Origin: Fimicolochytrium jonesii
Taxonomy: Eukaryota
Length of the DNA: 64,000 nt
Direction: 5' to 3'
Assembly (NCBI RefSeq): GCF_025526975.1
Contig: NW_026515671.1
Location: forward strand, 1,612,001-1,676,000
The position numbers and the translations under genes were made by a program. The notes under the pieces were generated by a model that saw nothing but the letters and a program-made list of their open reading frames with translations, did not search any database and was not told the origin of the DNA. Shown piece by piece: positions 24,501 through 58,025 of this stretch (its first letter is position 1; each line of letters starts with the position of its first letter).

Positions 24501-24634
24501 TGGATCTGCATTTGGATAGTAAGCATTCGTTGAGTGTGGCGCCGAGGATATGGATTAGCGATCATGTTAGTTTGGATGAGGCGTTGGGATACCTTACGCC
24601 GAGGATGAATGGGAGCCCGGTGCCGCCTAAGTAG
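21530..24634 (+). CDS. VIP1: Inositol hexakisphosphate/diphosphoinositol pentakisphosphate kinase (Vip1/Asp1/PPIP5K), multi-exon
   Basis: [21 protein letters not shown]-grasp kinase motifs [30 protein letters not shown] and [11 protein letters not shown]; His-phosphatase motif [12 protein letters not shown]. Confidence 0.95.
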
Positions 24635-25187: not shown

Positions 25188-26433
25188 ATGGCAGTACGAC
25201 TCCTGCGGCGGATACCGCTCTATCTGGCCATCTTGGCTACAGCAGCCCTGCTTGTGTCTGCTGAAGAAGTGGAGGAAGAGCCGCCGTTCACATTGTTTGC
25301 GTACTCGTTATCTGCGCCATATATAGGTATGCAAATCATCAGTACTTGCAGAGCCAGGAGAGGCAAGGCGGAATGCTGATAGGATACTTTCGTTTCGGCA
25401 GAGGAGCAATTGCAAAACCGGTGGTGGGATTTTGGCGGCGACACCATCATGGAAGTCAACAACTACATCCGCCTAACCCCCGACCGCGGCTCCAAAGCTG
25501 GCTACCTTTGGGCCAAGCATCCCTTCACAACCAAATCCTGGATGACCGAGTTCGAGTTCAAAGTCCACAGTACCACATCCGGGCTGCACGGGGACGGATT
25601 CGCTTTCTGGTACACGTCCGAAAAAAACACTCGCGGCCCCGTGTTTGGGTCCAAGGACAAGTTCTCCGGGCTCGGCGTGTTCTTCGACACCTTCAACAAC
25701 GGCCGGCACGCGCTACCCTTCCCACGGGTGAACGCCATGGTCGGCGACGGCAAGACAGCGTACGACTACAAGGACGGTGTGACGGGCCAGGTGGGCAGCT
25801 GCGAGCTGGATTTTAGGAACAAGGAGGATCCGACGTGGGCGAGGGTCAAGTATGTGCAAGAGACGAAGCGGCTGCAGGTGTGGTCGAATGCGGGGAATGC
25901 GGGGAGGAGGGATGAGGATTTCAAGCTGTGCTTTCAGGCGGATAACGTGGTGTTGCCGCCGTCGGGGTATATTGGGTTCTCGGCGCATACGGGAGGGGTG
26001 AGCGATAATCATGATATTATCAGTGTGAAGACGCAGGCTATCACTGTCGTAAGTATCCGTTCGTGTATGCCTTGCGTTTGCGAGGGAAGAAGGGGGAGTC
26101 TTCAGCTTGCGGAAATCACCGCCGTTGCAAGATGTTCCCTCTATCATCCCATCCTACAATTACCATAAACTAACCCCCCTCCTAATTACTCAGCGCACCA
26201 AACCCAACTCCGCCTCCTCCAATCAAGACACTGCCAAAGGCCCCTCCGCCGAAAAAGTCCCCACCTACTACGCCGACAGCAAAATGGACTCCACGAAAGC
26301 AACGAGTAAGAGCAGCAGCGGGTTCGTCGAGTTCCTCAAAGTCCTCTTTGGGCTCGCTGCGCTGGGCGCGGTGTGTACCGGCGCGTGGATGTATGCGCAA
26401 CGGCAGCAGGAGCGGTCTTTCAAGCGGTTCTGA
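25188..26433 (+). CDS. L-type lectin cargo receptor (VIP36/LMAN2/Emp46-47-like), multi-exon
   Basis: Signal peptide, WWDFGGDT, IRLTPDR, GDGFAFW, FSGLGVFFDTFNN, GYIGFSAHTGGVSDNHDI, then a C-terminal TM segment and a KRF tail. Confidence 0.9.
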
Positions 26434-29250: not shown

Positions 29251-31611
29251 TCACCTAAACCCCGCCATCCAATCCGCTTCCGGCACCTGCCCCGGTCCGT
29301 TGCCCAACTGAAACTGCCCCCGTCCCCTGCCCGCCGTCAGCCGCCCATCTCTTTCCTCATAATACCACTCGTCCTCCCAATCCCCCTCCTCATTCTCCTC
29401 CTCCTCCAACCCGTTGCCCGGATCTAGATCCCCGAGATCATCCCCATCCCCATCCCCATCCCCCCGTCGCAGTCGTCTTATCTGATCCGCGAGGGCCGCG
29501 AGCGCTGTCCTGAGACCGCCGCCGGCTGCGGTCACGGGGTTGGTGAAGTCGAGGGAGAGGCCCGTGGGTGCGCGGGAGGTGGTGCTTGGTGGAGGAAGCG
29601 GGTCGTGGGATTGGAGGTCGGTTGAGGCGAGCGTGCGGGGGAGGGCGGAGGTTATGTTTGGGAAGTCTGCGAAAGTCACACCGGGGGTGAGTATTGTGTG
29701 AGTGGGATGGCGGTGGGAGATGAAGATACGGGTTGGTGGAAGCATGACATACCCGAAATGAAAATATGCCTCGACAAATTCCTCGGCACCTCCCCTTCCC
29801 CAACCCCGCTCCCCCGCTCCCCGCCTTCCGCCAGCACAGATTTCACACCCTCCCTCAACCACGCCAACACCTCAGGGACCTTCCACATCGAATGCGCGCG
29901 CTCGACATACAATTCCACCTGTAACCGCAACGCCAAGGAGTCAGTCTCGTCGACGAAGAAGGGCGTGTCGGGGGTTACGCCGGCGACGCTGGAGCCGCAT
30001 TTGTCGAGGAGGAGGGGGATGAGGGTTGGGAAGGTGCGGATGGCTGTGTGGAGGAGGGTTGTGCTTTCTGCGTGTAATGATGAAGAAGACGATTTGTGGT
30101 TTTTGGCCTCGACGGCCCATTTGGCGAGTGCGAGGCTGTACGCGTGGTTCGGATAGTCGAGCAGTCCCAGGGACTCTTGATAAGCGTCTACGAAGCGGAG
30201 GTACCATTCCTCCTCCTTCGCGTTCAGCGCATACGCGTCGATGCTGTACAGCGTTCCAAGCGGGTCGGCGTCAATATCGAGCGCCAGGAGGAACTTCGCA
30301 AACTCGAACGAGGTCCGCCAGCACCCGCGACGCGCGAGGTATCCGATATGTCTAAACAGGGCCAAATGGAACGCTCTATTCTCAAACCGCTGGTAGGGCA
30401 GCCGCGCGAGGCCCGTGGCGGCATTGAACATGGAATGAAACGCGCGTTCAAACGCATACAGCGCGCGTTCGACGAGTTCAGCGGCCATAGCGATATCCCC
30501 GCCGTGTTTTGCAATCTCGCTGAGCTGGAGGAGGGTGTCAATGTGGTACGGGTACATCTGCAGCAGGTTCTGAATGGTGTTTGGGTCGTGGGTGTTGACG
30601 CACTGGATGAAGACGTGCTGGATCTCCTGGTACGCGCGGGAATGGACGAAGGTGAAGTAGAGGGTGCCGTCGTCGGCGGTGGATTCGAGTTCCATGGTCA
30701 GGCCGAGTTTGTCGGGTTTGGGCCAGTGTTCGCGGGGGACGGCTAGGGCGGTGCGTTTGGCGCTGCGGATGTACTTTTTGCGCCGGATTTCGTCGTTGAC
30801 GACCCGGGAGCCGAACATTTTACGCATTTCGGCATCGGCGTCGAGCCAGCGGGGGTCGATGGATAGGAGGTCGCGGCGGGCGGAGTCGGTGTTGTTGGGG
30901 TTAGTAGGTTCTGTGGATGTTGGCGTTAAGATGTCGCCGAACCTGGTTGAAATCGGGATTCGTCAGTCTTGTACTCATCGTCGACCGGCCTTCCCAGTCA
31001 GCATTGCCCTCTCCCGTTCGCAACGCAACTCACTTTTCATTCAACTCCCTCAGCGTCCGATCAATCTCATCCATCCCGTCCTCAACAGCCTTCCCCTTCC
31101 CCTTCCCCTTTCCTTCATTCTCCACCACGACCTCCTTCCCTCCACCCTTCCCCTTCTTCTTGTTCTTTTTCTTCTTCGATTTCCTCTTTGCTGCTGGCTT
31201 GCCTATCCGCTCCTCCTCCTCGTCATCCTCAGCGTCGTCTTCGTCATTGTCTTGCCCATTGACGGTGGCTGCTGCTGTTGTTGTGGCGGCCTTGAGTCCC
31301 TTTGCGGTATCTGAGTCTGCCCCCTCTTCGTCGCTTTCATCGCTATCAACGTCATCGCCACCCAACTGCCATGGAAGTGTTGACTGTTGTCAGCAACACA
31401 TAAGAGATCACTCCTGAGAATCCTCCCCTCAACTCACCAAAGCAAACAAACTCTGCTGTCCACCCGCCGGATGCTGACTATCACCCTCTCCCTCCTCGTC
31501 GGTGGTGACTTCGTTGTCGGGGTTGAGGCTGTTGGTGTTCTGTTTCGGTTGGACGGCTAGCGGGACGAGACCGTCGCGTTCTCGCATGAGCTTGCGGTAG
31601 GCTCGGGACAT
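29251..31611 (-). CDS. RQC1: Ribosome quality control protein Rqc1 / TCF25 (Nulp1), multi-exon
   Basis: MSRAYRKL start, LDADAEMRKMFGSRVV, YPYHIDTLLQLSE, ENRAFHLALFRHI..LARRGCWRTSFEFAKFLLALD..DPLG and DPLPP. Confidence 0.92.
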
Positions 31612-32954
31612 CTTGAAGAGACGGGTTCTTGGAATGGGAGCGACTTGGGAGGGGTGCGCTGCTTATGAAACTGTGAGGGGAAGTGGCTGTTGTGGCTGGG
31701 TTGAGTTCCGGATATGTGGATAATAATGCGTTTGTTTGCGAGAGTTGCGAGGGTCGCAATTGCGAAAACAACGTCGGACTTGGCCACCAGCGCCCGCCGC
31801 CTCTTCTTCTTCCGTGGCTGTCCAACAAGCCAACCAACAAACAAACCGCAACCATACTCTACTATGATACTATGATGTTCATCAACGCAGCTGGGAACTG
31901 GCTCAATGTCAATGTCCTTCACCGAAAGTTTGATTTGAAGGTCAACTGATTCAAGTCTCTATATCTATCCCATCATACTGTTCCTTGAACTGGGCTTCCT
32001 TCTACCTCGATTCGAATGATTACGCTTGTTTCTTCCCGCATCTCGACTATAAGCGCCTAGTAATCCTGCGATAGCCCCTTCCTTTCTCCTTGAGCGCTTT
32101 CTTGACAGAATGTCCGCACTCTCAACGGCTCCTGTCTCATCTCGGGGACGGGGGGACTTTCTGTGGATGTCGATTTCAGGTGGTCCTTGCTTATGAGCGC
32201 GTGAAGGTGCCCCTCTCTTTTCCCTTCCGCTTCGTAGGACGTCCGCTGGTACACTACCATTCATGGTATTGTAGGACTTCGGACAAGACCAGGCACGTCT
32301 AAGCGACTCAGGACAATTGATCGAGAAAAGAGTAGAACGCCTTAGCGTATCTGGACTCTAAATATCTCTGTCGCATCTGTGCAAGACGATTACGACATGG
32401 TTGGGAGGTAGCGCCCTAAGCTTCTAACAATGACAATTTCGCGCTCCATTCGCTTGTGAGGTAGGTGGATAGCTGGACACGTGTGGTATTCCCCATCTTC
32501 GCCAGGGCTGAGTGCTGGAGCGTGATGCCTGTAAATGCCCTGTCCTTTGCCCCATTCCGACATCCCGGGAGGTAACTGGAGAAGTGACGTACTGAGACGG
32601 CGTGCATGTACAGGATAGGTGCAGGAGCGGCATAGCCCGATCCCAGGCAGCGTTCCCATATGTGTATAGTGTGCATGCGAGGCACATTACAGTGTGTCCG
32701 AGAGCTTTGGCGAGGGAGACGCGTGATGCTGCTGCTTCTCTTCCGTCCCCTTGCGAATGCGAAGTCCCTTTTTGGTGTTGTGAAAGGCATTCCCACGTTG
32801 GTAGATCTAACGCCACCAGCAACTGGCGCTCAGCTGATGAACAACCTCAGCTCAGACAGATACCCTGCACCCCCGTGGGTATAGATAAGAAGTACTCCTA
32901 CGCAGTCCTCGTCGCAAAGTGCAGTCCCAACGCTCTTCCAGGAACCGCACCAGA

Positions 32955-35900
32955 ATGCTGGCGGACCCGGCTGTCCTGCCCCCAGGCTCAGCAACAGCGG
33001 CGGCGGCTGCGGCCATCCAGCAGCAGCAGCACAGCAAAGATCACAGCAAAGAAGCTCCTCCTCCAAGCCGCAGAGGCGTATCAGAAGCTGCCCAAGGCGA
33101 ACGAGCCGTCCGTCGCCAGCAACGCGGGCGCTTCCTCGCCTTTGTCGAAGAAGAGACTAGCAAACACATGGAAAAGCGAGTCCGGAATCTGGTCAATGAC
33201 GAGCTCGTCCGGCGATGCGGCGCCGCCCTCCTTGTCTCCGCAACCCATGCCATGGCCATTGACACACTCTGGCAGCACGTCGACACCGCCAACGATCTCG
33301 CAGAGACGCAGGACAATCTTCTTGCACAGGCTGTCGAGTTCGTGAGAAGTTACGTCAAGAATGCTATCCTGGACAAGTTATCCTGGTCGGACGAGGCTAC
33401 GCGATTGCAGGAACAGGAAGCGCTCGTCCATCGTGATGTGAGCGCTCTGATTGAGCGACAGATGCGGTCCATGGACATCCATCGGTTTTTCAAGTCTAGG
33501 GAGTTGGTCGTCATTGAATATGAGAAGGAGCTGTGGAGGTTTGAGATGTCGACAAAGGAGCCCCCTGAGATGATGTTGGAACCGGGGATTCCCGCGGAGT
33601 GCCTCGATACGCCTGGGAAAGCGCAGGTTGTCGTAACGGAAGAGCACATCACGTTGGAAGTGACGCTTGACGAGACTCAGCAGGGTGGTGAGGAGAAAAT
33701 GGTCGAGAAATCTGCCGCCGACACCGCAGCAGCTGAAGAAGAACCGAAAAAGAAACCCAAGAAATCGAAAAAGAAAATGGCAAAGCTCAGAAAAAGGATG
33801 CTTAAATTCAGCGAACGCGTCCTCCAAAAAGCCATCGTCGTCACCGAAGACTACTGCAAAGTTGCCCGCTGCGTCCAACAGATCCAGGTCGAAGCCGCCA
33901 AACACACCGAAGAAGGTCAATTCGTCGGATCACCCCTGCTAGGCGTCGAACGCCCCGACGAACTCTCCACAATGACCTGCACCATCCTTGGCATGGAGTT
34001 CCGCAAACTCTACCAAACCTTCGAACCCTCCCAACGCGTCCAACAAGACCGCAAAAGAGTCCAAGAAAATATGCAGTTCATCGTCGACAGAGCCTACCGC
34101 GGCCACGTCAAGATACACGTGGAGCTCTTCGGCTCCTCAATCAACAATCTCGGCTTCTCAACCTCCGACGTCGATATCTGTCTCCGCATCCCGCAGTCCC
34201 ACGGGTTGGATGAGGACGAGTTTGCGCGACTCACCAACATGTTCCGTCTTGCGAATATCCTGAGGAGGTTTGGGATGCAAGATGTGCGGCCGGTCGCGTC
34301 GGCTAGGGTGCCGATCTGCAAGTTTGTGCATCCGGAGACGGGGTTGCAGTGTGATGCGAATTTTGGGAATGAGTTGGGGGTTAAGAATTCATTGCTTTTG
34401 AGGACGTATACGTTGATTGATCCGAGGGTTAGGCCTTTGGTTATGTTGGTGAAGAATTGGGCGAAGAATAGGGATCTTAATGATGCTGCTGATGGAGGTA
34501 TGGATCGGAATTCCCATCTTCTTGTGGCTGTTGTCATCTCACTTTCCTTGGGCTCACTCAAAAGTAACACCACCATTTCACGCATTTCACAGGAACGATC
34601 ACCTCCTACGCCTACTCGCTGATGGTCCTCAACTTTCTTCAAATCCGCGGCATCATCCCGTCGTTGCAAGAGCTTTACGAGGATCCTGTCCGCCAGACTC
34701 TCGAAGTTCTTCTACCCATCCCGGTCCCACGCATGCGCCGCAGAAGGGGTGGGAACGACCAGAAGAAGAAACAGCAGGGCAATGGACTTGCCGCGGCGGA
34801 AGAAAAGGAAAAGCACAAAGGAGCGAAGCCGGTGGATGATGGGAAGAAGGCTGGTGATGACAAAGAAAACGAATCCGACGACGAAGAAGAGGCCAGTGAC
34901 GACGACGCATCGGAACCCGAAACCGGAGACACCACCACCCTGCCCCCCAAACGCCGCTTCACCGTCGACGTCTCCTTCATCTCCACCCCCACGCACCCCT
35001 CCCTTGCCCCCTACCATGCGCACTCCAAAACCCTCACCCCGCACGACATCTGGTGCGGCCCCTCCGGAATCGCCGCCCTGTTCCACGCCTTCATGACCTA
35101 CTACGCCTGGGACTACCGCTTCCGCCACGACCAGGTCGTCTCAGTGCGCACCGCCCGCGTTATGAGGGAACTCACACCGGAATTGATGGGGACGTGTCGG
35201 AAGAGTATGGGCATGGCGCTGGTGGTTGAGGACCCGTTTCAGTTGGATCGGAATTGTACGGGGAGCTTGAAACATCCCGGGGTGCTGGTGAGGGAGATGA
35301 GGAGGGCGTTGATGATTATGGGGCGGGTTGCTGCTGGCGCCGCGGAAGAACCTATCATCAAAACCCCCGCTGTTGTCAAGTCTACACCGATGACACCCAC
35401 CGAGCTAATGGAATCCCACCCCCGCCTCCTGAACATGCAACCCCTCGGCGTCGCGACCGCCGTCCGCACCCTGATGGAAGAGACCGCGTACGTGCTGCAG
35501 AAGAAGGAGGATGCGGCGGCCGCGGGGTTGGAGTACGCGCATCGGGCGAGTCGGAATACCGTATTCCGCCCTGTTATTGCCGATGGTGGTGCGGATGGGG
35601 GTGGCCTTAGAGGCGGACGGGGCGGCTATCGGGGCCGGGGAGGGTTTGGGGGGCGAGGCGGTGGGTTGGCGCATGGACCGCCGTCTGGCGGTTATGGGAA
35701 TGGGAATGCGCGACAACAGCAATCGCCGCCGATGGCGAATGCGTTCCCGCCGTTACCGGATGTGAAACGTGCGCCTGGGACTGGGAATGCGAGTGCGAGG
35801 ATGGATACCGGGCGGGGGAGGAACACTGGAAGTGGTGGCAGAGGGTATCACAGCGCCGGTGGAAGAGGCGGCGGACGAAGCGGAGCGACACATACCCAAC

Positions 35901-36250
35901 CGCACACTCAACAACACACCACCCGTCCGGGACCGGCCTCAGTCGCGCAACCGACTGGGAAGGCCCAACAACAACAACCGAAAAACAATATACCCTCACG
36001 CGCTGCTTCGCAGTCCAACATCCCCACCGCTACCACCTCAACAACAAAACCGACACCGTCAACGTCAGCGACGGCACCTAAACCGACATTCCCCCGAAAA
36101 CCGATGAAGCATACATCTGCGCTTGGGACACCCGGCGTAGGCAAAGCTAAACTCACGAACAATACGAACGTGAACGCGGCGAAAGCGGTCGGGATTGGGA
36201 AAGCTGTCGGGAAGAGGGGTGAGGATAAGGGTGTTGTTGTTCCGCGATGA
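32955..36250 (+). CDS. Cid1/Cid13-family non-canonical poly(A) polymerase or terminal uridylyltransferase, with RGG-rich tail
   Basis: FGSSINNLGFSTSDVDIC, ARVPICKF, QCDANF and VKNWAKNRDLND, then an intron, then SYAYSLMVLNFLQ and the PAP-associated motif VEDPFQLDRN. Confidence 0.9.
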
Positions 36251-38740: not shown

Positions 38741-38922
38741 CCGCACACCTCGCATTCCGTCACACTTCGCACTTCACACTTCCATCTTCGCAGACTCAAC
38801 GCAACCCCCAGCCGTCTCCCACCCACCTCTCCAACCTCAGCGGAGAGCGAATAAGAGCAGTCACCTGAGGAACTTCCCTTCGCCTAGTATAGATAAAGTA
38901 GCTTCCTGCCGCGGTCTCCAAG

Positions 38923-41080
38923 ATGCTTCCGATCGCTACCATCGCGACTGAAAAGGGGTCGCCAGTCCATCCAGAATTGCCGACGTCACACTCAGATCTT
39001 GAGCAGGCTCGAGCTATAATCCGCGCCAAGGAGACCAAAGAGCACAGAAAGGCCATATGTTTCGGCCTCGCCATCTTACTCTTGCTGGCCTGTTATTTCT
39101 TCGACAACATTACCCCAAGACCCTTCACGGACCCGTTCAGCGAGCTTCCCCTCGACCTGGATGCTTTCGACGACTTTGGCAATGACGACGATGCCATCTG
39201 TAGGCAGCCCGCCCCCCGGGTTCCCCAGCAGAACCAAAACATCACGGAACGCAACTACGATGGCCTCTTCCGCGACCCCGAATGGCGCAAGGAGGCCGGT
39301 GAACGTCTGGCGCAAAGCGTGCGTATCGACACCCAGACCTTTGACCACCTCCGCGATATCATGCCGACCCCAGAGGGCACGCCAGACATCCCCGAACGGG
39401 CCGGATTCGACAAGTTCAAGGAGTGGATCGCCAAAGCTTACCCCCTGACGCACAAGCATTTGAAGAGGGAGTTGGTCAACAGATACGCGTTATTGTACAC
39501 GTGGGAGGGCAAGGAGGATGTCAAGACGGCCAAACCGCTCGTGCTATGCTCGCACATCGATACTGTGCCTGTGCCCGCTTCGTCGCTTGATCAGTGGGTG
39601 CATCCCCCGTTCTCCGGTCATTTCGATGGGGAGTATATCTGGGGTCGTGGGAGCGTGGACACCAAGAACACCCTTGTTGCGATTGTGGAGGCCGTTGAAA
39701 ACTTGTTGGCGGCTGGGTTCAAGCCCAAGCGTACTGTTATCTTGGCCTTTGGATTTGATGAGGAGATTAGCGGATACCAGGTGGTTATATCGATCTTCCA
39801 GATTCGGCAGCGCATTTCAGGGGATGAGCTTTTTCAGATGGGCTGACCGATGTTTTCTCCATGTTGCAGGGCGCCCGGTTCCTCTCCAAGAAGCTTCTCG
39901 ACCGTCTTGGCCCCGGCGGCGTAGAACTCCTCATCGACGAAGGTCCGGGCATCGGCACCGAATACGGCGCCACCTTCGCCTCCATCGGCATCTCCGAAAA
40001 GGGCTACACCGACTCAACCCTCACCCTCTCCACCGCCGGCGGGCACTCCTCCATCCCGCCCAAACACACCAACATCGGCCTGATGGCGCGCATCATTGCG
40101 AACATCGAAGAGAACGTGTACACCCCCGAACTGTCCGACGACAACCCTTTCCTGCTCAACTTGCAGTGTACCGCCAAGTATGGCCCGGAGATGAACCCGT
40201 GGTTGAAGAAGGCGATTAGGAATGTGGATAAGGTCCGCCCGGCTCTGGTTAAGTATTTGGCGAGGGATGTGCAGACGAGGTATATGATGCAGACGTCGCA
40301 GGCTGTGACGATGATCAATGGGGGTGTCAAACGTAAGTGTCCGACTCGCGACGCGTATCAAGTGGATGCGACGCACACGTTCTCTACGCGTTCAGATTCG
40401 AACTCAGGTCTTGCGTTTCTTCCAACCCCAGTCAACGCCCTCCCCGAACAAACAATCGCCTCAATCAACCAACGCATCGCCATGCACTCCTCCGTCGAAA
40501 CCGTCGAACACCACCTCATCGGGCTCCTCACACACCTCTCCGACCCCTCCCGACTAGCCCTCAACTTCACATCCACCAACCACCTCAACGTCACAAAAAC
40601 CCACTTTGAAACACCTGACGCTGTTGGCGCATTACATTATGAGACTTTCATCCCGGCGTTGCAGCCCGCGCCCGTGAGTCCGGTGGATACGCCGGCGTGG
40701 GACTTGATTGCGGGAACTGTGAGGAGGGTCAGTGCGAGGAACTGGGAGGTGAAGGAGGGGAAAGAGGAGAAGGAGGAGGAGGAGGAGGGGATTATTGTAC
40801 GCCCGGAGTTGATGCCTGCCAATACGGATACGAGGCATTATTGGGATCTGACGAAGAACATCTTCAGGTTCGTTCGGACAGTCCTTTTCTGATGAATGTG
40901 GCCTTTTTCCTGATGATTGGATCAAAACATCGTTCATATGCACACAGATACGACCCGATCCGCGCCGACAAGATCTTTGGCATCCACACTGTCAATGAAC
41001 GCATCGCGCTTTCGTCTTTCATCGAGAGCGTTGCGTTTTTCCATGAGATTGTGCGTAACTTTCAGGAAGTCGAGTTCTGA
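38923..41080 (+). CDS. CPS1: Gly-Xaa carboxypeptidase (peptidase M20A, carboxypeptidase S), multi-exon
   Basis: N-terminal TM anchor, then SHIDTVPV, WGRGSVDTK, FGFDEEISG, EKGY, GGHSSIPP, ANTDTRHYWDLTKNIFRF and IHTVNE. Confidence 0.93.
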
Positions 41081-44017: not shown

Positions 44018-44832
44018 CGTGTACGGATCGGGCGTCCGATCGGGCGTCGGGCGTTAGCATTAGGGCTCCGTCCCGTCCGAAGTAAAGATCCGCCTCGCTC
44101 AAAAACTGGTAGGCGTAACTTCGGAACCAACCATGGGATGGGCCGGGTTTGCCGCGGCCCGGGTACAGGCCCGGGCGTCCCATGGGCTCTCACCGGGATG
44201 GGATGGGACAAAGCTTCTGAGACCCGCTGTTTGGGCTGTTTGGAAAGGCGGAAGCGCAAGACGAAGCGGGTCGGGCGCCGCCGCGTTAGCTTCTGTTCGC
44301 GCGGGCCGCTCGGAGGATCGGAGGCGGCGGGCGTGGGCATTCGTATTACAGTATTTCATGTATCACAACGCTTCTGCAACTCCGCCGAGTCGCCGACATT
44401 CCATGAATCGTACTGTATGTTCTCTCATATGATCGTCGAATCTATTATGTCGATCACAATCGATGTGTCATCGATGTTCCATTGTATAGCCTGTAGGCGC
44501 CCGTAATTCATTAAAAAGTAGTACGGCGCCCTCGCTCCGAGTCGCTCGTCGAATCTACTATGTCAATCCCAATCGATGTCTCATCGAGGTTCCACTAAAA
44601 AGTAGTACGGCGTCAAAGATTCTCAGCAACGGCCGAGGCAGTATGGCATGTCGCCATAACCTGGTTTCTGGACGACACCCCACGCCTGGCAGGTCGACGG
44701 GCCAATTGAAAGCGGCGGTAATTGTCTTGGTGTCATCTTTCACAGACACAACCGGCAGCGGCAGCGGGTGCAACTCATTCGTGTACGGATCGGGCGTCGG
44801 ATCGGGCGTCGGGCATTAGCATCGGGCGTCGG
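44018..44832. mobile_element. Repeat-rich, non-coding, TE-like segment (possible non-autonomous element remnant)
   Basis: About 43-bp direct repeats CGTGTACGGATCGGGCGTC..TTAGCAT at 44018 and 44780; a GC-rich hairpin CCATGGGATG..CGTCCCATGG at about 44131-44185; an internal duplication at about 44433-44528 and 44547-44612. Confidence 0.45.
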
Positions 44833-45018
44833 AAAACGTTCAGGAAAGCCAACTGTGGATTGAGCCAGTCCGCAGCCCACTGTGATTTCGCACATACAGT
44901 AAGATGCCTTGTTTGGCGATGTTCTATAAAACAGAATCGCAAGAATAGACAGCCCACATCACAAAGTCATCGCTCTCCCTGGTTATCCCAATTCCGACCC
45001 CATCGTCTAATATCTCAA

Positions 45019-45774
45019 ATGACCGTTTCAAACGCAAGTCCTACTGTATGGTTCATCACCGGCGCCAACCGGGGCATCGGGCTCGGCATTGTTCAACTGC
45101 TCGCCCAGCGGCCCGACACTATCGTGATAGCTACGACTCGTAATCCTGCAGAAGCGCTGGAGCTCGCCGAGCTTGCCCAAACCCACACCAACGTTCACAT
45201 TGTCAAACTCGAAGTCACCTCCGACGCCGATCATATCAAGGCACTTGAGGATATCGCTCGGATCGCCCCAACCGGTGTGGATGTGCTGCTCGCCAATGCC
45301 GGAGTGAACCCCATGCCCCCTGCCCTGGCGCTTGACGTGCCCTTGAGCCAAGTGCAGGCCGCATTCGACGTCAATACATTAGGTCCCCTTCGGGCCTTTC
45401 ACACACTCTACCCGCTGCTCAAGATGAAGACCACCCGCAAAGTTTTCTTCACATCATCTGAGATGGGGACGTTCGATAAGCTTCCGATGGCCATGTTCCC
45501 TACGTTCGCGTACAACCTCTCCAAGCTCGCAGCGCGGTACACGGCGATGGAGATTGCTCGAGATCTCAAAGGGGAAGAGTTCACCGTCATCCCCATCCAT
45601 CCAGGCTGGGTCGCGACTGAAATGGGCAACAAAGGGGCAAAGCTTTTCGATCTTGAACAAGCACCCGTCTCTATCCTGGAGAGCGCCGGTGGTATCATCA
45701 AGACGATTGAGGCGGCGACCACGCAGGATAGTGGTAGATTTCTGAACTGGAAAGGGGAGGAGGTGCCGCTTTGA
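45019..45774 (+). CDS. Short-chain dehydrogenase/reductase (C-factor/CsgA-like), intronless
   Basis: TGANRGIG, DVLLANAG, YNLSK catalytic motif, IHPGWVATEMG and SGRFLNWKG. Confidence 0.93.
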   Translation: MTVSNASPTVWFITGANRGIGLGIVQLLAQRPDTIVIATTRNPAEALELAELAQTHTNVHIVKLEVTSDADHIKALEDIARIAPTGVDVLLANAGVNPMPPALALDVPLSQVQAAFDVNTLGPLRAFHTLYPLLKMKTTRKVFFTSSEMGTFDKLPMAMFPTFAYNLSKLAARYTAMEIARDLKGEEFTVIPIHPGWVATEMGNKGAKLFDLEQAPVSILESAGGIIKTIEAATTQDSGRFLNWKGEEVPL

Positions 45775-46868: not shown

Positions 46869-48410
46869 TCAGAAAGTGGACCCATATCGAGTTTCGAGGG
46901 TATCAACGAGAGTTTGCGGGCTTTCATGGCGGGCGCGAGGGGCCTTCAGCTCGTTGACCTCGCCGGCATACACATCCTCGTCATCGTCGTCGTCCTCCCG
47001 TTCCTCCTCGAAGCGGGATTCGTTCTCTGCGGCCGCGGTAAGAATGGCGGGTATCTGTTGCTTGATCAGCTCCTGCCGCTTGATGACAGCGTCCGCCGCA
47101 ATCGCGACCATTGCGTTGGCGAGGGCCAACCGATCCTCGAGCAGTTGTGTGTTGGATTGCATGAGACGACGGTGTCGGTAGACAACGTCCGCAGTCGCAT
47201 CAGGGCGAACCATGTCAAAAACGTGAAGCTCCACAACGTCTCCTACGATCGAGGCTGCGAAGATATACAGTTGATTGTCTGGCACGCCCATTATCCGATA
47301 GAGATCCAGGGTTGGCTTTGCAACACAGGCCAGCTGAGGTACCGCGTCGCCAGCACCCAGGTCTTTGCATTCCAGGAGAAACACCGGAACCGCGAAGAGC
47401 GACGTCTGGATGGTTGCGCCTGGAAAAGCTGATCCTTCAACAGCAGCAATAAAATCCGGTTTGGGCAGCGTCGATTCAATGGCGACTGTTCTTGGGAGCG
47501 GCAGATTGACGTTGCTGTACACAAAGAGCACCACAGAGAGAATTAGATTCGTGACACGGGAGCTGTTGAATGGAGAAACGCGAAACGCTGTATACGCACG
47601 AGAAGTCTGTAAAGCCCTTCTCTCCCAGAGGAAAAAATCGGACGAGAGACATGGACACTCGTCGCTCAAAAGCGAGCTCTCCGCGACAAAAATTCGGGCC
47701 GTCGGTGACATCCAGCCCCGTGGAGACGGCGGTGGCGAAAGCGTACATAGAGCTATGCGTGAGGTCTTCCCCCTCCTCATCGAAGGACATGAGAGGCTCG
47801 AGCTTCCGTGCGACTATGGGTGGCAGATGTTCCTGTGTACATGCGCGGTGCGGCAGACCGCAGACGTAAGCACAATGTTCTTCCAACTGACGGGACATGG
47901 CAAAGGTTCAGAACGACAAAATCAGATCACACCTTTAAGGCAAACGGAAAAACACAACACTTCGAGGCGTCGAGCACAGCCTGTACCGGTCCCGCGGCCG
48001 TTGCCAAATTGTCGAACTTGAATCCAACCCCCCGAAGTACTGCACGAGGGACATTACTGAGATAAAGGCGTCAAGTTAGTGTCCTTTATATCCATGTTCA
48101 CCCCACCAAGCTGAATGAGAATTTTTCCTCCTACTTGGGAACGAACGTTGCCTCCGTTGGCGGTACGACCCGAATGCCGAACTGGCCGGCTAAGTCTGCG
48201 TAGGCTAGCGAGAGCTGTTAGTATGTCCAAAAGCCAAGAAAGACAAGCGTTTACGTACCTTGCGAAAAAGCCAGCTGTCTGGTTCGGAGCGGAGTCGCCG
48301 GACGCTTTGCGGCCGGGCTGTTGCTCCTGGACGTCAGTGCTGAGGATGACAGTCGAGAGGGACAGTGTGTCAGGCGGAGAGTGACAAGCGGTTTGTTGTG
48401 GCAGAGTCAT
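46869..48410 (-). CDS. PD-(D/E)xK restriction-endonuclease-fold protein (Crinkler/CR-REase-like), multi-exon; start uncertain
   Basis: KPDFIAAVEG...VFLLECKDLG..AVPQL motif. Candidate introns at about 47516-47598 and 47887-47933 join upstream exons in frame. Acidic tail. Confidence 0.55.
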
Positions 48411-48857: not shown

Positions 48858-51800
48858 TCAAACATCTAAGGGCCCTGGCCCTGGAATCGCGCTTCCCTTT
48901 TTGTCGTCGCTGCCACTTTCGCCCTTCCGTTCTGCCGTAGGTGGCAAAGTCGGTCTCCTTCCTGCCGAGGTCCCCACCACGCTTAAATCTCTACCCCTCC
49001 CACCCGCATTTACGGACCGGCAACTTTTCTCCACATCTTTCTGCTGGAGTTGGGTAAGCAGCGCGGACCAATTGGTTGCATCTGCCTCGCTCAGTTGCAT
49101 TTCGATCGTGCCGATCTTCCCACCAGCTATGATCCGCAGGACTTGCTTCTTCTCCCGCACTGGATCCAGTTCAAACTTGAAAGTATCCTCTCTCCAATTG
49201 CAGGATAGAGCCGAGCACTTGAAGACAAACGATACGAAGTCAGTTTCAGTATGTTCCCCACGATACGTCGGTCATCAGATGGATCGGCAGTATGGACTCA
49301 CATCAGGATACACATAAATGACCGTATGGTGCGCCGGCAGACATATCACATGGACATCCCTCCATGGGCCAAACATGAGCTTCGGCTTGAATCGCGCCAT
49401 CATTTGATGTTGGACCACATTCGCTAGACCCTCTTGCGCATGATTCGACACCGTCTGGCTAGTGATCGAACTCTGTCGGCTATCATCAACCCGGGCCGTT
49501 GCTCGGATGCCCGCTTTTAGTCCCAATCCGTTTGATGGCTTCAAGTCGGATTCTCCTTTTCTCAGGATCAGCCATGCCTTTGGGGCGAAGGTCACGGTGA
49601 GAATGACGAACGATGCGGACCAGATCGCGATCGCGCGAACCATGAAGACTAGGCTTGGCGTTGTTCCTGGCATGAAGACGACGGGAAAGCCGAGGAGACA
49701 AAAGACGATCACGTTGTAGGAAGCAATGCCGAGCTGCTTTGATTCGTTGTACTGCAGGGCGACATTGCGATTCTGGTCATGATTGAGCACACCGGAGAAT
49801 AGTTTCAGTGAGACGCAAATATCCGCACACAACCGTATCCACTCACCACGAACGCAAATAAAACAGTGACCCCCAGAATGAAACCGTTATATGCCATCAA
49901 CATCGTGCTCCACGTATTATTGGCAGACTGGCACACAAGGTAGTGATCCGTCGATTCCGGATTCATCATGACCGGTATTGGAGGGGAAGCGGCGCCCCAG
50001 ACAGCGATCATGATTACATTAATCAGAACAAGCGGGACCGTCGCCTGTAACAATCGCATATCTTTCAGCGCCTTTTTGGATGGCCTCGGATTGTTAAAAA
50101 TGTAGTAGATGCGGAGGTTCTTGATGCAGAGACTCCCCAGCGATAGCGAAAAGCCGATGGCGAGAAGGGCGGGTGCAACTATACAGCTGGCTCGGGTGAC
50201 GGGACCAGCATAGAACAGGTTCGAGATGAAGGTCAAGGCAAGACCCAATAAGATCAGGCCCAGGAAGATCGGACTGGCGGCTTTGATGACTTTCCGTTTG
50301 ACGTAAATTCTGGTGAACACCGCGGCGGCCAGGATACCCAGCAAGCCGACGCTGCTCAAGAATGCAACGAAGATTCCCAGCGGAGCGCTGTAGGCTGTGT
50401 ATGGAACGCAAGGTATCACGACTTGGATGGCGATGGGATCAGAAGTTCTCAGATCATCTATCACTTGGTAGGAAAGGGTGTCGATCCCACAACCTGTCGG
50501 GTGGAAGGTCAGATCAAGTCGATAGATGTGTGAGGAGGTATTGGAAGTCGCGGACAGAAGCTCGGCATTAGAGATGCGCTCGCCCGCTGCATTTGTCAGA
50601 TATCCTATCCCCGGAGGCTTGGTGATTTGAAACTTCGGAGTCCGCTCGTCCCGTTCATAAGCTTCAAGCATCACGGTGAATGGCAGAACATCTCCGGTGC
50701 CACCATTGAGACGTGATACCGGATAGCTCATTGCCATTCCCTCGGGGGCCGTCGCCGGATGAACCAGGGAGGTCAAGTGGATGGTGACGGTGCTCGTTTC
50801 GGATAGCTGGGAGAGATCCCCAATGCAGTCCGTCGCCCCGTAGTCAAACCCATCGACGCCACTCTTTGAGGGGTCGGGCACGTACACGACTCGATACTGC
50901 ATGTCGGTGACATAGCCAGCTTCTAACCGGTCAGTCCCCACGTTCTCAATTGCATCAATCTCCTTCCATCCGTCGAGTTTATAGTTGGCACGATCCAGCC
51001 TAATTGCATCCGTCTGGAAAGGTGTGCCACAGACGCCCGGCGAGTTCATCAGGTAGGTCTGCGATATATATGTGCCCCTTGATGAGTACAGGTCTTTCTG
51101 CGCTGCGCCTTTCCACACTGCGATCCAGTCGTTGGTGGCAGGATGCCGGACGGAGATGATCTCCGTAGTTCCCGGATTCAGATTTTCGTATCTGTTTCCC
51201 AAGTTTTCTTTCAGCAGATGAAACGAAGGATGAGGTCCGGTGAGTGCAAGAAACCTACGAGTTGATGCTAACAATATGCGTCGCTAAATCATATCCAACC
51301 TCAACGAACTCCATCGCATTCGGCGAAGGCGGGCAGTTCCATCCCCATGGATTTGCAGGACCCTTTGGTTCGCACTTGACACCCCTCGGCGTACTTGGAC
51401 ACCAGGAATCTTCAGAGCCGCCATAGCCGAGATCCGCGCGACTTGCATCATATTTCTCTGGCGCGCCTAGCAGAGCATTGACACCATAGCCAGAGTATTC
51501 ATCTGTCCAATAATACTGGGTGCTAAAACGCAGAGTCGGATCACTCGGCCAGGGGATGGTTCGGTTCGGGTACTGTGGAACTCGGCTAACCCATTGCTTC
51601 TTTCGTGGCTGACTGATCCGCCACGGTGTAAAGTACTCTGTAATGGCTTCCCCAATGTAATTCGGTGGATTAGTTTCATTGTATTGATACAGCTTGCCGA
51701 GTGTCGGAAGCGAATTGATGGTGCACACCAGAAGCCGCTCATCCGAGTCTTGAGTGATTGCATTCAATTGAATGATGATCGAGGATGCGTTTTCTTCTGA

Positions 51801-54548
51801 GATGTACGTGCTGAGGAATGGAAAGCCGTCCCATCCGATGTTGCTCGGTTGCTTCGGGGCCGCTGTCCACAGGGGGAAACGGGATGCAGATCCACCGCCC
51901 AGCTGACCGGCATAGGATCCAGCAGGCCCGCATAAAGATGCCTCAGTCGTGCTTGCGGAAACCGGTGCACCGCAAGCTGCAATACCCTTGCTGCCCTCAT
52001 TTAAATGCCACACTACGCTCAAATTGGCCGTCTCTTGCGGTCTGAGGAGAACATTCAAATTCCTCGATCCTCCCACAACCCCTTTCGACGAATTGAAAAT
52101 GGCAATCTCGTCCAATCCACCCTCGTATCCTTTCCCGATTACGAGCCCCGTTCCGCTGGATGGTATGCCGGCGGTGGAAACATGTACGTCTTGTACATTA
52201 TTGTTCACGTATATACTGATCTCTCCGCTCGAGTCTTTGCTCACAGCTACATGCGACCACTGCTGGGAGGTGATATTTGCGCGGAGGAGCGGTTGACCGG
52301 CGACGGCAAAACGCAAGACGTTGTGCACTTGATCCATAGTGAGAACAAGCGTATCGTCTGCGGTAGCCCATATGCGTGCCGCAGTAGACGACGATACGGG
52401 GTCTGGCCATAACCACATCTCCATAGTGAACTCCGCCATCCCCAAAAGTGGGTAGTTCGGGAAATCTATATGGTGTCGATTTGCAAATGTCAGATAAAAG
52501 GTGTTGACGCCAGCAACGGCCGGAATCCCGGTCCTTGCGGCGAGGTTGATTGTCGCGACGGCGTTGTTGGTTGAGACTATCCCATGCTCGCCTACTACGC
52601 TGAACTCGAACGTGTCAAATGGGGCACCGTGTTCATTGGGGTGTGGTACATATTGGATGCCGTCTACTTCGGTGTTCACGACATCACCGACACTCAACAG
52701 CTCCTTTCGTTGCGGGACGTCGTTCCAGATCAAGGTCGCTCTATAGATTGAACCGCGAATTGGAAGTGTCTGCACAATCGCACCTTTAAATGGCCCTTGT
52801 GCAAAGGGGCGTGCCGTCAGAGGGATGAAGATGTTTGCAGCCCCCGCTACGACATCCACGTGAACATTCCGAGCAGTCAGCGATTTGGCAACGATGAGTG
52901 TCACGGTCGCCGATGTCGGCGCTGATGTGCCGTCGGAGATCTGGTACGTGAATGTACAGCTAGCATCCACTGCCGCGGTGGAGGACACCCAAATTGTGTC
53001 ACTGTTGCCCGGGATAACGCTCCCATCAACGGCGGGTGTGACGGAGTCTAGGTATATAGACCATCCGGCTGCCGTGGAACAGGTTTGAAGTGACTGGATT
53101 GACGTGGTGATCTGTGCATTGGGGACGTCAGAAGAACCGGGAAGCTTGACGCTGGATAAGGACGCCGACGGAATGAAGGCCCGCACTCGTCGGCTGCCAG
53201 TCAAGGGGGCATCGGAAGGGATCCAAGAAGGTCGTCGGTTGCATTCGACGTTCTGTTTGCATGTGCCACAGTCAGTCAACATGAGAGAAATCAACATCAC
53301 GGTTGGGATCCTCCCACTTACGTCCGAGACTCCAATTCTCCCAGCGGGGCATTCGACAACATCCGCAAACGCATTCTGACCTCCCAGCACCAGTGGGTTC
53401 GCAGTTGCATCAACCTCATTCAAAATAGTCTTGCTATCGCTTTCCAGTATGTCCATCCCCCATTTTGCGAATAAGCCCGCGGTGCTTCCCGGGAGCACGT
53501 GGTGCATATCCGCTTGAATCTCTTCCTGCGTCCGAACAACGTTCCATATCTTCGTTGAAAAAGGTGAAGGAGCGTTGACGTAAGTCAATATCGAGTGCAA
53601 CGACAAAAGCGCAAACCCACCCGAACTTCATCCATAACCCCCACAAACGCCTTCAGGTCCTGAAACGAGCCATAGAATGCATCCTGGTCCTGCCCCAACA
53701 CCAAAGCGACCGTGCTCGTAAGATTAGCGCCCACTAAGTAGTCTTGCGTCTCGGTGTTTTCATCGCTGTATTCTAGGTCGCCGTTGAGGTAGAAGTGGGC
53801 TACTCCTGTTGTGACCTGTGAGGGTGTGAGTTGTTGCCCGAAAGGGGAAGCATGTGTGGGCGATGAAGGGATACGTACATCCAGTGTGAGCGCTTTAATG
53901 GAAGCAATCCGTGTGCAGATCAACAGTTAGTCAAGCTATGCGTCCCCGGAACGACGCAACATATCCATTGACCCTACCCATATGCTGCCACTCCCCCAAC
54001 CGAAGATCCGTCCAATTCGTCGCAGACTAATAGCAAGCCGCATCAGCCCAAATATCAACAAAAGCACATTACCCAAGAAAAATCACAAACCAAAATGGCC
54101 CCTGCGGTATTCGACAACAACGACGCATAGCCATTCTGTACATTAATGTAATCATCATCAGCGCCATCATCCACCCCCTCAAAATTGAATGAATGCAACA
54201 CGGCGAGGGAGAAGTAGTGCGGGTTTTGGGAGACGAAGGGGAAAAAATTGGTTCTGCGGTTGTGAGGAAATGTCGGGTTAGCTATTTTCTTCATCACATA
54301 TAAAGGAGGGACGCTGTCCATCACTCATACTTCGCCCAAAACTCGATCGTGAAAGTACTTGGAGGCCACTGCGTTACGATTTGGCCGTACGAGACCCCGT
54401 CGACGATGCCTTGGCTTCCGATGCCGGCAACTGTGGTTGTGTTGTAGAAATACAATGCGTTGCCTGCGCCGCCGGCATACAAGGTCGCTTCCGTATAGGG
54501 AAAGGCGACGCAGGCTAGAAGGAACAGGAGAAGGAGACAGATGGACAT
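48858..54548 (-). CDS. Class C (7tm_3, GABA-B-like) GPCR with very large LamG/Ig-like/FBXL4-like ectodomain and PH-like cytoplasmic tail, multi-exon
   Basis: Signal peptide MSICLLLLFLLACVAFP; LamG motifs FTIEFW, VGVMDEVR, FTMEMW, QWSHVAV and GGLDEIAIF; 7TM motifs KVIKAASPIFL, GFSLSLGSLCIKNLRIYYIF, YNESKQLGIASYN and TFAPK. Confidence 0.88.
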
Positions 54549-55965: not shown

Positions 55966-55977
55966 TACTGACAGCCG

Positions 55978-56059
55978 CCAATGTCAACTGCCAATGTCAA
56001 ACGCCAATGTCAATGTCAATGTCAGTGTCAATGTCAGTGTCAATGTCAATGTCAATGCC
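55978..56059. repeat. (CAATGT)n hexanucleotide tandem array
   Basis: About 12 CAATGT/CAGTGT units abutting the 5' break of the Fanzor relic. Confidence 0.9.
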
Positions 56060-56213
56060 ACTCCCCCTCTCTCCTCTCATTTCGCCAATCCCGCCTCGGC
56101 TTCTCCACATCACCCCACTACTTCTCCATAGCCAGGCCACTCCTCCTCTCTGCTCTCATTTCGCCAATCCCCCCTCGGCTTCTCCACACCCCCCACCACT
56201 TCTCCATAGCCAG
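56058..56213. repeat. Tandem duplication of about 77 bp
   Basis: CCACTCC..CTCTCATTTCGCCAATCCC..CTCGGCTTCTCCACA..ACTTCTCCATAGCCAG occurs twice head-to-tail. Confidence 0.85.
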
Positions 56214-56493
56214 CAGCTGTAGCAATGATCTCTACGCTCGCCACGCACGCTCTAGGAGCATAGCTGGCGCCCCCGCCGGTCCCCTCTTGTTGTTGTTGTT
56301 CTCTGGCCTGCTGGGTTGCCTATCTATAACTAGCCGCCCTCTCTTCGTCCATTCCCTTCCTCCCCAGCAGATCAACACCAGTTCTTCTCATCTCCTGTTC
56401 TAGTCCTTGTTTCTTGTTTTGCCAATACAATCTCTTGTCGCCTATCACTCTCGCCTTGTCTTCTCTACTTCGCTTCCGCCTCAGTCGTCGAGA

Positions 56494-57720
56494 TCATAAC
56501 AGAAGCAATCTTGTGAAAAATTTGTTGGCCGGCTCTTCAGTTCTCTCTTCCGGCCGACGGCCGGCAATTTCCACCCGGTACCACCGCGCCAAAGCGCCGA
56601 CGTGTTGTCTTGCTCCCGCCGCATCCCGGTTCCTCATCGAACCCAAAAGTCTGGCCAACGACTGACCCAGCTCCACGCTCATCGTCTCCAGTCCGAAACG
56701 CTCTCCAGTAAGGATGTCCTGGAGAGGACCGTCAAATATCAACTGAACCGCAGTTCCGGCAAAACAGGTACCACCGGCACTCGGTATGCCAAATCTTGTT
56801 TGAACCCCACCCCCCCGGCCTCCCCGTGAGCCCGGTGTCATTGTTCCCCGGCCTCTATCTCCCCGGCCTCCATCTCCCCGGCCTTGATCTCCCCCGCCTC
56901 GCTCCGGCCGCGCTCCACGAGACCCAGTCCTACGGCTACCAGGAGGGGGGTTGAAGCCTTGTGGACTAGGCATCAACGGAGCTGGCATGGTTTCGATGGC
57001 ACTCCACACAGGCAAGTCTTCGATTGGAAGGCTTTGCGATCCACGGGCGAGGGTGTCGTCGTTGTTTCTGTCAGGCGGAAAGGGGATGTGCACCCGGACA
57101 CCTTCAATTGACCGGAGCAGGTGGTGCGTGTAGGGCCCGGTTGAAGATTCCGACTCGGTGCTGGTTGTTGCTCGTCGAGGCTGGGGGTCAGGAAGGTCCT
57201 CAAAAGTGAGAGGCACCACAATCCGAAGGATGGTTCTCCGGGGATTCGCCGGGTCTGGCGAACGCGTGAGGCCCATGGACATGGGGATGGTCACATTGGG
57301 AGGGAAGACAAGCCACCCGTCCCGGTTGATGGAAAACATTGCCGAAGGCTGAATGTACCCATGTCCCGACTGGCTATGGGAGCCGTCGCCTCCATCTCCA
57401 TCATGCTCTCCAGGTGGTTGGTCAGGCTGCTCCGCGGGGTTCGGCTTGTCGGATCGTTGAGGCTGTACCGGCGGGATCGGTGGCTGAGGTGCTGGAGGTT
57501 CCGGTGGTTGAGCTTGTTCAGCTTGTTCAGGTCGTTCCGGCTTGGTTGCGGTTTGTTCGGTGGTCAACGGCTCTGGCCTTTCTGGGTGTCCCGTTGACGG
57601 ACCCAATGGGGCTGGTAGATTTACACCGGCTTGCTGTGTGCTTGGTCCTGCCGTCCTAGAAGGCCTAAGGGGAGGCGGAGGCTTTGGGATTCCAACGGGC
57701 AGATTAGGTTCATTGGCCAT
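56494..57720 (-). pseudogene. Pro/RGG-rich ORF ending in a truncated USP (peptidase C19)-like domain
   Basis: RFGIPSAGGTCFAGTAVQLIF resembles the USP Cys box (GLxNxGNTCY/FxNSxLQxL), and EEPANKFFTRLL resembles the QxDAxEFLxxLL box. No His box before the stop. Confidence 0.5.
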
Positions 57721-57800
57721 GGTGGAAGTTGTTGGAACGGATGCTTGAACACGGGGGAAACTTGCGGAGGGGTCTTGATTTCTACGACGTGGGTAGAAAC

Positions 57801-57885
57801 AATTGAGAATGCAAAGTATACGTACTAGAAAAGGGTGGATATCAATTGAGAATACAAAGTATACGTACTATAAAGGGTGGATATC
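57801..57885. repeat. 43-bp tandem direct repeat (2 copies)
   Basis: AATTGAGAATGCAAAGTATACGTACTAGAAAAGGGTGGATATC followed by a near-identical copy, about 80 bp upstream of the USP-like ORF start. Confidence 0.9.
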
Positions 57886-58025
57886 TTTCCAAAATGCCAA
57901 GAAGTCTAAGCAATAGGGGCTTGGGGAAGTGTCAATGTTCCAGTAGAATACCGTCTTTTCGAGGATGGAGAAGTCAGCGCTGTTGATGATTGATGACCAC
58001 TTGCACATTTGAGCCCTATATATAC

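Follow-up and report, generated by a model that had tools for sequence, protein, structure and literature searches.

Class C receptors and their ectodomains

How G protein-coupled receptors (GPCRs) of class C are activated has been explained almost entirely in terms of the Venus flytrap domain. The receptor described here has a different arm. Its gene lies at 48858..54548 on the minus strand of a 64,000-nucleotide stretch (the window) from the chytrid fungus Fimicolochytrium jonesii (Spizellomycetales; contig NW_026515671.1, positions 1,612,001 to 1,676,000), and it encodes a class C seven-transmembrane domain (7TM) preceded by a long ectodomain of LamG, immunoglobulin-like (Ig) and probably galactose-binding-like units. 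The closest described protein is CAOG_05078 of Capsaspora owczarzaki (EFW47134.1 / KJE94435.1), which Krishnan et al. 2012 (PMC3251606) report as a Pentaxin-bearing glutamate receptor, naming only Pentaxin and only Capsaspora in the sections of the paper available to us; PMC3251606 was the only paper found with the accession EFW47134 in the literature searched. In the available part of its supplement, EFW47134.1 is a truncated model of P0011, and the calcium-loop motif discussed below occurs once. CAOG_05078 has the same ectodomain order, a class C 7TM and the same calcium loop, with 26% identity to the F. jonesii protein over residues 1-1482 (E 4e-114); it differs in its heptad tail, in a Q at the place of Q150 of C-reactive protein (CRP), where the chytrids have K, and in a 7TM that does not group with those of the chytrids. 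The design is not new, since this homolog was reported in 2012; because it was already listed for Capsaspora, the novelty implied by an earlier note on this DNA, made from the sequence alone, was too high, and the surprise is limited. What is added here are the fungal members (the domain table of PMC12716839 may already record LamG-type fungal ones), the calcium loop of the first LamG domain (LamG1), and the finding that unicellular holozoans carry the same arm on receptor kinases and on a receptor guanylate cyclase. In the literature searched, whose coverage was incomplete, there was no description of the full architecture in fungi.

Other papers, as far as the sections available to us go, describe class C receptors of gut fungi whose ectodomains are of the pectin-lyase-fold and SBP type II kinds (PMC5168858), and OpuAC, LysR, PBP and BMP ectodomain types on non-flytrap class C receptors of early-diverging fungi (PMC3251606). 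These share with the F. jonesii protein the class C 7TM, a swapped long ectodomain and a proposed role in carbohydrate sensing, and differ in the folds of their ectodomains; none of the fungal ectodomains that these sections name is a LamG, Ig or galactose-binding-like domain. Diverse ectodomains are also reported for filasterean and holomycotan glutamate receptors (PMC12716839), glutamate-class receptors are enriched in Chytridiomycota and Blastocladiomycota (PMC12842992), and lineage-specific architectures have been noted (PMC3971589). The statement of the earlier note that animal class C receptors use a flytrap is too broad, as GPR158/179 have a Cache domain instead (PMC12716839).

Three further groups of proteins resemble parts of the receptor. 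GABA-B2, GPR156 and mGlu are alike in 7TM sequence, predicted fold, lock residues and the FxPK motif, whereas the F. jonesii protein has no flytrap or nine-cysteine match and, in place of the coiled coil, a tail predicted to be PH-like. GPR126/ADGRG6 and GPR144 likewise have, ahead of a 7TM, a long arm of several domains that includes a pentraxin domain, in the sources available, but they have GAIN/GPS autoproteolysis and a 7tm_2 domain, neither of which is matched here. CRP, SAP and the neuronal pentraxins resemble LamG1 in sequence, with the GQ[DE]QD loop kept; LamG1, in contrast, is one domain of a membrane receptor, and two of the second-site ligands are changed in the chytrids.

A single intact gene

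The gene is real, single and intact. It reads as one uninterrupted frame of 1678 amino acids (aa) in 10 exons, with nine GT-AG introns of 63-85 nucleotides (nt); the ATG at 54548 and the stop at 48858-48860 coincide exactly with the gene limits given. Exons 1-5 lie at 54331-54548, 54091-54253, 53978-54026, 53879-53892 and 53621-53815, and exons 6-10 at 53322-53549, 51259-53252, 49847-51191, 49302-49772 and 48858-49217; these and all feature coordinates below are window positions on the minus strand. The derived protein equals P0003 (KAI8824548.1/XP_052928434.1), which was retrieved by a protein search with exon 7 as query, at every residue, a match that may partly be explained by a shared DNA source. 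Colinear orthologs occur in Geranomyces variabilis (P0004, P0005) and Gaertneriomyces (P0006); the Geranomyces ortholog matches at 51% over 1585 aligned positions, and P0005 and P0006 align over the full length. The single-gene receptor of about 1700 aa proposed in the earlier note is supported, and the five sequence motifs that it quoted are all found, at residues 448, 490, 801, 1143 and 1189. Its signal peptide is likewise predicted, from an N-terminal hydrophobic stretch in the hydropathy plot (aa 1-21, 54486..54548, cleavage site set by eye) that is also present in P0005 and P0006.

In P0004 (Geranomyces HDU87_001988), about 340 unrelated N-terminal residues replace the signal peptide and first LamG strands present in P0005, and this is probably a mis-joined gene model. 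DNA repeats inside the gene amount only to short chance pairs and were dismissed.

Membrane domain and cytoplasmic tail

The membrane domain (aa 1221-1470, 49569..50392) is of the class C (glutamate) type, an assignment made from sequence profiles, PDB matches and a structural model. Pfam 7tm_3 matches aa 1221-1467 with E 2.5e-47 and 162 bits against a curated cut-off of 33.5, and hydropathy gives seven C-terminal hydrophobic segments. By sequence the closest solved 7TMs are those of GABA-B2 (best, E 1e-24), GABA-B1, mGlu, CaSR and GPR156. An AlphaFold2 model of aa 1215-1628, built from an 18-row alignment (mean predicted local distance difference test score, pLDDT, 77.8), has seven helices and matches mGlu1 with Z 29.1 and a root-mean-square deviation (rmsd) of 2.5 over 256 aligned residues; in the fold search, natural class C chains gave Z 23.4-29.1 and the other natural GPCRs listed at most 17.5. 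All 18 alignment rows share C1215, C1290, K1311 and C1374. With transmembrane helix (TM) 3 numbered by alignment to GABA-B2 and TM6/7 by motif, K1311 and E1412 fit the K3.50-E/D6.35 lock, and C1290 and C1374 are the cysteines joining TM3 and extracellular loop 2. The FxPKxY motif is present as FAPKAW (FAPK at 1464-1467, W for Y). Lock and motif are both class C marks according to the available part of PMC8163086. The receptor would presumably couple to G proteins.

No Pfam match to a flytrap (ANF_receptor), nine-cysteine, GAIN, GPS or 7tm_2 domain was found at E up to 1; other domains take up the whole ectodomain, and an Ig unit directly precedes TM1. The 7tm_3 domain and the missing flytrap of the earlier note both hold, and its term 'adhesion-like' stands as an analogy only, with no GAIN/GPS or 7tm_2 match behind it. 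Membership of the adhesion GPCRs was ruled out on the lack of these matches and on the Ig unit before TM1; a canonical mGluR, CaSR or GABA-B subtype with flytrap was ruled out on the missing ANF_receptor match and the otherwise occupied ectodomain.

After the 7TM follows a cytoplasmic domain (aa ~1521-1619, 49038..49418), conserved in the four chytrid proteins, for which AlphaFold2 predicts seven strands and a final helix (block pLDDT 77-85). It may adopt a PH fold, as the predicted secondary structure suggests. For the PH domain named in the earlier note this strand and helix pattern is in favour, and no sequence or fold match supports the label: there was no Pfam match and no usable Atlas match, hhalign to a PH domain elsewhere in the window gave a score of 13.0, no better than 50 shuffles, which reached 16.9, and the fold search of the aa 1215-1628 model was filled by 7TM matches and did not cover the tail. 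In the available part of PMC3251606 supplement 1, eight of the 10 class C receptors shown for Spizellomyces punctatus have, to judge by eye, a tail resembling aa 1521-1619, which closes with a unit rich in strands and a last helix that contains tryptophan, whatever the ectodomain. The Capsaspora protein ends instead in coiled-coil-like heptads (by eye). No description of a PH-like tail on chytrid class C receptors was found in the literature searched. A similar tail is seen by eye on one sequence of the Batrachochytrium section in the same supplement, as far as available.

Order of the ectodomain

The earlier note had given the order LamG-Ig-LamG-Ig-FBXL4-like-Ig, which has to be corrected to signal peptide, pentraxin-type LamG1, Ig1, Ig2, LamG2, Ig3 split by an insert, Ig4, 7TM and predicted PH-like tail: two Ig units stand between the LamG domains, and the 'FBXL4-like' unit is nested within the third Ig. 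Its Ig/cadherin-like units are confirmed as such, their number being four and not three, and its two LamG domains are borne out by Pfam, which gives Laminin_G_3 in two stretches (E 2.7e-28) together with Pentaxin (E 1.4e-15), Ig_SibA (E 6.6e-8) and Big_9 (E 2.9e-5). Ig1 (aa ~305-411, 52887..53207) has a Big_9/Cadherin_5 match at 342-410 and matches our Ig repeat profile, built from 109 intact Ig repeats of 14 multi-repeat matches. Ig2 (aa ~414-527, 52539..52880) is weak here (E 0.8) and clear in P0011 (404-518, E 8e-13) and P0018 (416-527, E 7e-10). LamG2 (aa ~538-752, 51864..52508) is matched by Laminin_G_3 with E 2.3e-11 on exon 7, and in the loop comparison it has no pentraxin calcium loop. 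Pfam rows for Toxin_R_bind_N, which overlaps LamG2, and S1 were dismissed (E 0.06-0.27, below cut-off).

The N-terminal half of Ig3 (aa ~772-830, 51630..51806) matches Ig_SibA at 777-828, and the repeat profile falls on it with positions 15-48 of 91 (E 0.1). The C-terminal half of Ig3 (aa ~1044-1096, 50765..50923) matches Big_9 positions 43-88 of 89 and repeat-profile positions 51-90 (E 2e-4). The nesting follows from these halves, since the first half of the repeat profile falls on 776-812 and the second on 1052-1095, and the Pfam matches show the same split around the insert. Among 34 family proteins the second half stands right after the insert in 29 and the first half before it (within the stretch searched) in 23, with both halves in 19. 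Ig4 (aa ~1118-1216, 50405..50701), which adjoins TM1, matches repeat-profile positions 18-91 (E 5e-6); in a weak model of the Geranomyces ortholog it has Ig-, cadherin- and PKD-like fold matches, and adhesin and cadherin folds are among the matches of the Ig units. Foldseek on a weak ectodomain model returned only diffuse Ig-like matches, and none of the Atlas matches for aa 770-1215, in clusters of Big_9/cadherin and F5/8C, reached 0.9, so that they serve as leads only.

The insert itself (aa ~838-1040, 50933..51608, across intron 7) likely has a galactose-binding-like fold of the CBM32 or F5/8C type. The assignment comes from a model of the Geranomyces ortholog on a 5-row alignment, whose fold matches (Z 7-8.7) are dominated by CBM32, F5/8C and f-lectin domains over model residues 67-257, the best being 3ggl_A (Z 8.7, rmsd 2.9, 105 aligned). 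The insert has no direct Pfam match in the F. jonesii protein; F5_F8_type_C is matched in three of seven bacterial-type relatives scanned. The label FBXL4 was not confirmed: Profile A1 gave no PDB sequence match at E up to 10, and FBXL4 and PAPP-A were absent from the 50 fold-search rows of the low-confidence ortholog model. One relative, P0008, carries PF25900, which we take to be a pappalysin domain.

The pentraxin-type LamG1

LamG1 (aa ~25-275, exons 1-6, 53364..54476) is matched by Pfam Laminin_G_3 at 59-225 and by Pentaxin at 134-226 (58 bits against a cut-off of 25), and the matches of the ortholog's LamG1 include NPTX2 (E 1.4e-7), NPTX1 (E 8.9e-7), CRP (E 2.3e-4) and a SAP-like pentraxin. 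The calcium ligands of CRP are D60, N61, E138, Q139, D140, E147 and Q150 (PMC6503050, in the part available). Judged by alignment to CRP (1b09) with the ortholog LamG1 and exon 5, LamG1 keeps most of this calcium loop (aa 189-203, 53651..53695): D191, Q192 and D193 stand at E138, Q139 and D140, Q200 at E147 and K203 at Q150, so that Q200 and K203 differ among the seven ligands. An acidic triplet (aa 105-107, 54151..54159), DDD here and DDN in the orthologs, Capsaspora and Pigoraptor, is likely the D60/N61 equivalent, D106/D107 being placed by position only, outside the HMMER alignment to CRP. The Q150 position holds K in all four chytrids and Q in Capsaspora and Pigoraptor, and Capsaspora retains the consensus of pentraxins, with DDN, GQDQD, a D in the place of E147 and a Q in that of Q150. 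The calcium-loop motif occurs in eight of 41 family proteins scanned, namely the four chytrids, Capsaspora, Pigoraptor, Chromosphaera and P0094. These residues are consistent with one intact calcium site beside an altered second site, at which K203 could take over the contact to an anionic ligand.

Distribution and history of the arm

A profile of Ig3, insert and Ig4 gave 4099 matches at E up to 0.001 against 1.84 billion representatives; all of the 150 listed were domain-mapped with our own profiles, and 66 insert-bearing ones were chosen for a Pfam scan. Among these 66, 27 have 7tm_3 (some partial), four a protein kinase and two a guanylate cyclase; 19 of the 27 also carry LamG or Pentaxin. 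Capsaspora CAOG_05078 has the same full domain order with 7tm_3, and Pigoraptor vietnamica has a partial member. In P0049 (Pigoraptor), P0015, P0142, P0107 and P0114 (Chromosphaera) the same module stands on single-pass receptor kinases and on a kinase-like plus guanylate cyclase receptor: Pigoraptor chileana has a receptor kinase, and Chromosphaera perkinsii combines two LamG domains and the insert with a kinase-like domain and a guanylate cyclase, in a layout like that of animal membrane cyclases. The presence of the ectodomain in Capsaspora and on other receptor types indicates that it is not a chytrid invention.

Two other groups were met among the insert-bearing matches. P0050, P0053, P0076 and P0129 combine the insert with Ephrin_rec_like repeats and nine to 10 hydrophobic segments without a 7tm_3 match, possibly another multi-pass receptor type. 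P0020, P0028, P0030, P0034, P0060 and P0090 are bacterial-type secreted proteins with tandem inserts and type IX secretion system (T9SS) tails, subtilase, NHL or dockerin parts.

In a 42-row insert tree one branch (98/98) unites the chytrids with Capsaspora, P. vietnamica and kinase P0015, and the bacterial-type tandem-insert proteins are a separate branch. In a 29-row 7TM tree, whose only chytrid class C receptors are those of this family, the chytrids make up one clade within an open fork, and the partner of Capsaspora is P0135 (97/93). The arm is probably an ancient module of opisthokonts, and 7TM and tail probably come from the chytrid class C expansion. The insert tree joins the chytrids with filastereans and the 7TM tree does not, and the tail is like that of other class C receptors of chytrids. 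On the simplest account, therefore, an old sensor arm was probably mounted anew on a 7TM and tail of chytrid type; less simply, there may have been plain descent, the tail being gained later, or transfer from a holozoan. Word-indexed protein searches, which were not exhaustive, returned four chytrid proteins only, which suggests loss of the arm elsewhere in fungi; fragment P0023 groups with these four. Single-protein patterns, which reach close relatives only, found no related locus in metagenome or viral contigs.

Proposed function of the receptor

We propose that the receptor serves calcium-dependent sensing of a cell or substrate surface, a role to which sequence and models lend about even odds. 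LamG1 with its calcium loop would be the candidate surface-binding site at the tip of the arm, the insert with its predicted sugar-binding fold would likely take part, and the signal would pass through the Ig units to the 7TM; both calcium binding and the class of ligand are what we infer from the retained loop and folds. The arm is more likely a sensor than a spacer, as it is reused on three signalling outputs (7tm_3, kinase and guanylate cyclase). The glycan or surface sensing of the earlier note finds indirect support in the pentraxin loop and the CBM32-like fold of a low-confidence model; the note also put forward a potential relevance to zoospore settlement. In a wider and more tentative proposal, which we consider possible and clearly less probable than the sensing role, the arm would be a pre-animal pattern-recognition module, a calcium-binding pentraxin with a nested lectin-like domain, which the opisthokont ancestor wired to a class C GPCR, a receptor kinase and a receptor guanylate cyclase, and which chytrids kept on their own PH-tailed 7TM.

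Several observations weigh against the proposed sensing role. Two second-site ligands of CRP are altered in the chytrids (E147 to Q/Q/Q/S-P region; Q150 to K, 4/4) and the N61 equivalent is D in the F. jonesii protein, so calcium binding may be partial. The loop is lacking in 33 of the 41 family proteins scanned and thus is not required for the architecture. The insert model is of low confidence (mean pLDDT 57.6), its Z values fall in a range flagged as common by the fold-search tool (Z under 8), and its matches also include the non-lectins IFT25, neuropilin b1b2 and BIRC6. Finally, the 7TM tree does not unite chytrids and Capsaspora, though a forced grouping is not rejected (approximately unbiased test, p 0.087).

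The most probable alternative, still unlikely, is that the insert is the true sensor, for a soluble sugar, oligosaccharide or ion near the membrane, with the LamG domains accessory. The split Ig with its insert is common to all members, and the insert is the best-conserved ectodomain part against Capsaspora (36%, compared with 28% for LamG1 and 25% for the 7TM); W906, E937, W976, R1018, W1029 and D1033 are kept in 84-98 of 109 insert copies, and the many relatives without a calcium loop also fit. The conserved residues may, however, be structural core, and the loop kept in chytrids and holozoans implies selection on LamG1 in this branch.

Somewhat less probable again is an ectodomain that works as a tether, by binding protein or mechanically, in homophilic fashion or to matrix, like the arm of an adhesion GPCR without the cleaved agonist. 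LamG, pentraxin and cadherin-like Ig domains are typical of adhesion receptors in the available part of PMC3251606, GPR126 has a PTX domain (PMC6954182, in part), and the Ig units match adhesin and cadherin folds; yet no GAIN/GPS match was obtained, the arm is also found on kinases and a cyclase, and the calcium site of GPR126 lies in its CUB domain according to the same source, while here the pentraxin loop itself is kept. We give still less weight to a 7TM that is constitutively active or lipid-regulated, or that signals mainly through the PH-like tail, with the arm only positioning it. GPR156, one of the closest solved 7TMs, is constitutively active or lipid-regulated, and PH-like units are frequent by eye on chytrid class C tails, but the protein has K1311 and E1412, the residues of the inactive-state lock, and the 1200-aa arm is conserved with its binding motifs. 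That ectodomain and 7TM are separate genes joined by an artefact of the gene model is hardly credible, because exon 8 (49847-51191) alone codes without a break for half of the insert, the C-terminal half of Ig3, Ig4 and TM1-5, and the same order is found in three other chytrid proteins and Capsaspora.

Neighbouring genes

There is no receptor cluster around the gene in the window, and the neighbours look by eye like ordinary housekeeping genes. Upstream lies a 457-aa proline/glycine-rich open frame (56494-57867, minus strand) without a Pfam match, around which short tandem repeats and 43-79 nt spaced repeats occur at 55969-57901; just downstream are overlapping open frames at 46869-47813 (minus, ending in an acidic run) and 47338-48021 (plus), also without a Pfam match. 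A BAR_4 and PH_20 protein lies at 17084-19414 (minus) and a short-chain dehydrogenase at 44722-45774 (plus). By eye, we take the others to be an SPX phosphate transporter (4439-6662, minus), the 30-kDa subunit of NADH dehydrogenase (20089-20751, minus), a Vip1-type kinase (21920-24634, plus), an L-type lectin (25383-26168, plus), TCF25/Rqc1 (29676-30962, minus), a Cid1-like polymerase (32889-36250, plus) and carboxypeptidase S (38902-40892, plus).

Implications

With an Ig unit directly on TM1 and a candidate calcium site at the tip, the receptor offers a test case for a class C 7TM driven by a different arm. How chytrids signal can be approached separately through the PH-like tail seen on many of their class C receptors. 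Should LamG1 bind both calcium and a ligand like that of CRP, recognition of the pentraxin type would predate animals and would first have been wired to membrane signalling. If the arm is indeed a pre-animal recognition module, fungi would have a membrane-bound forerunner of CRP/SAP-type ligand recognition, reading the surfaces of host, prey or substrate.

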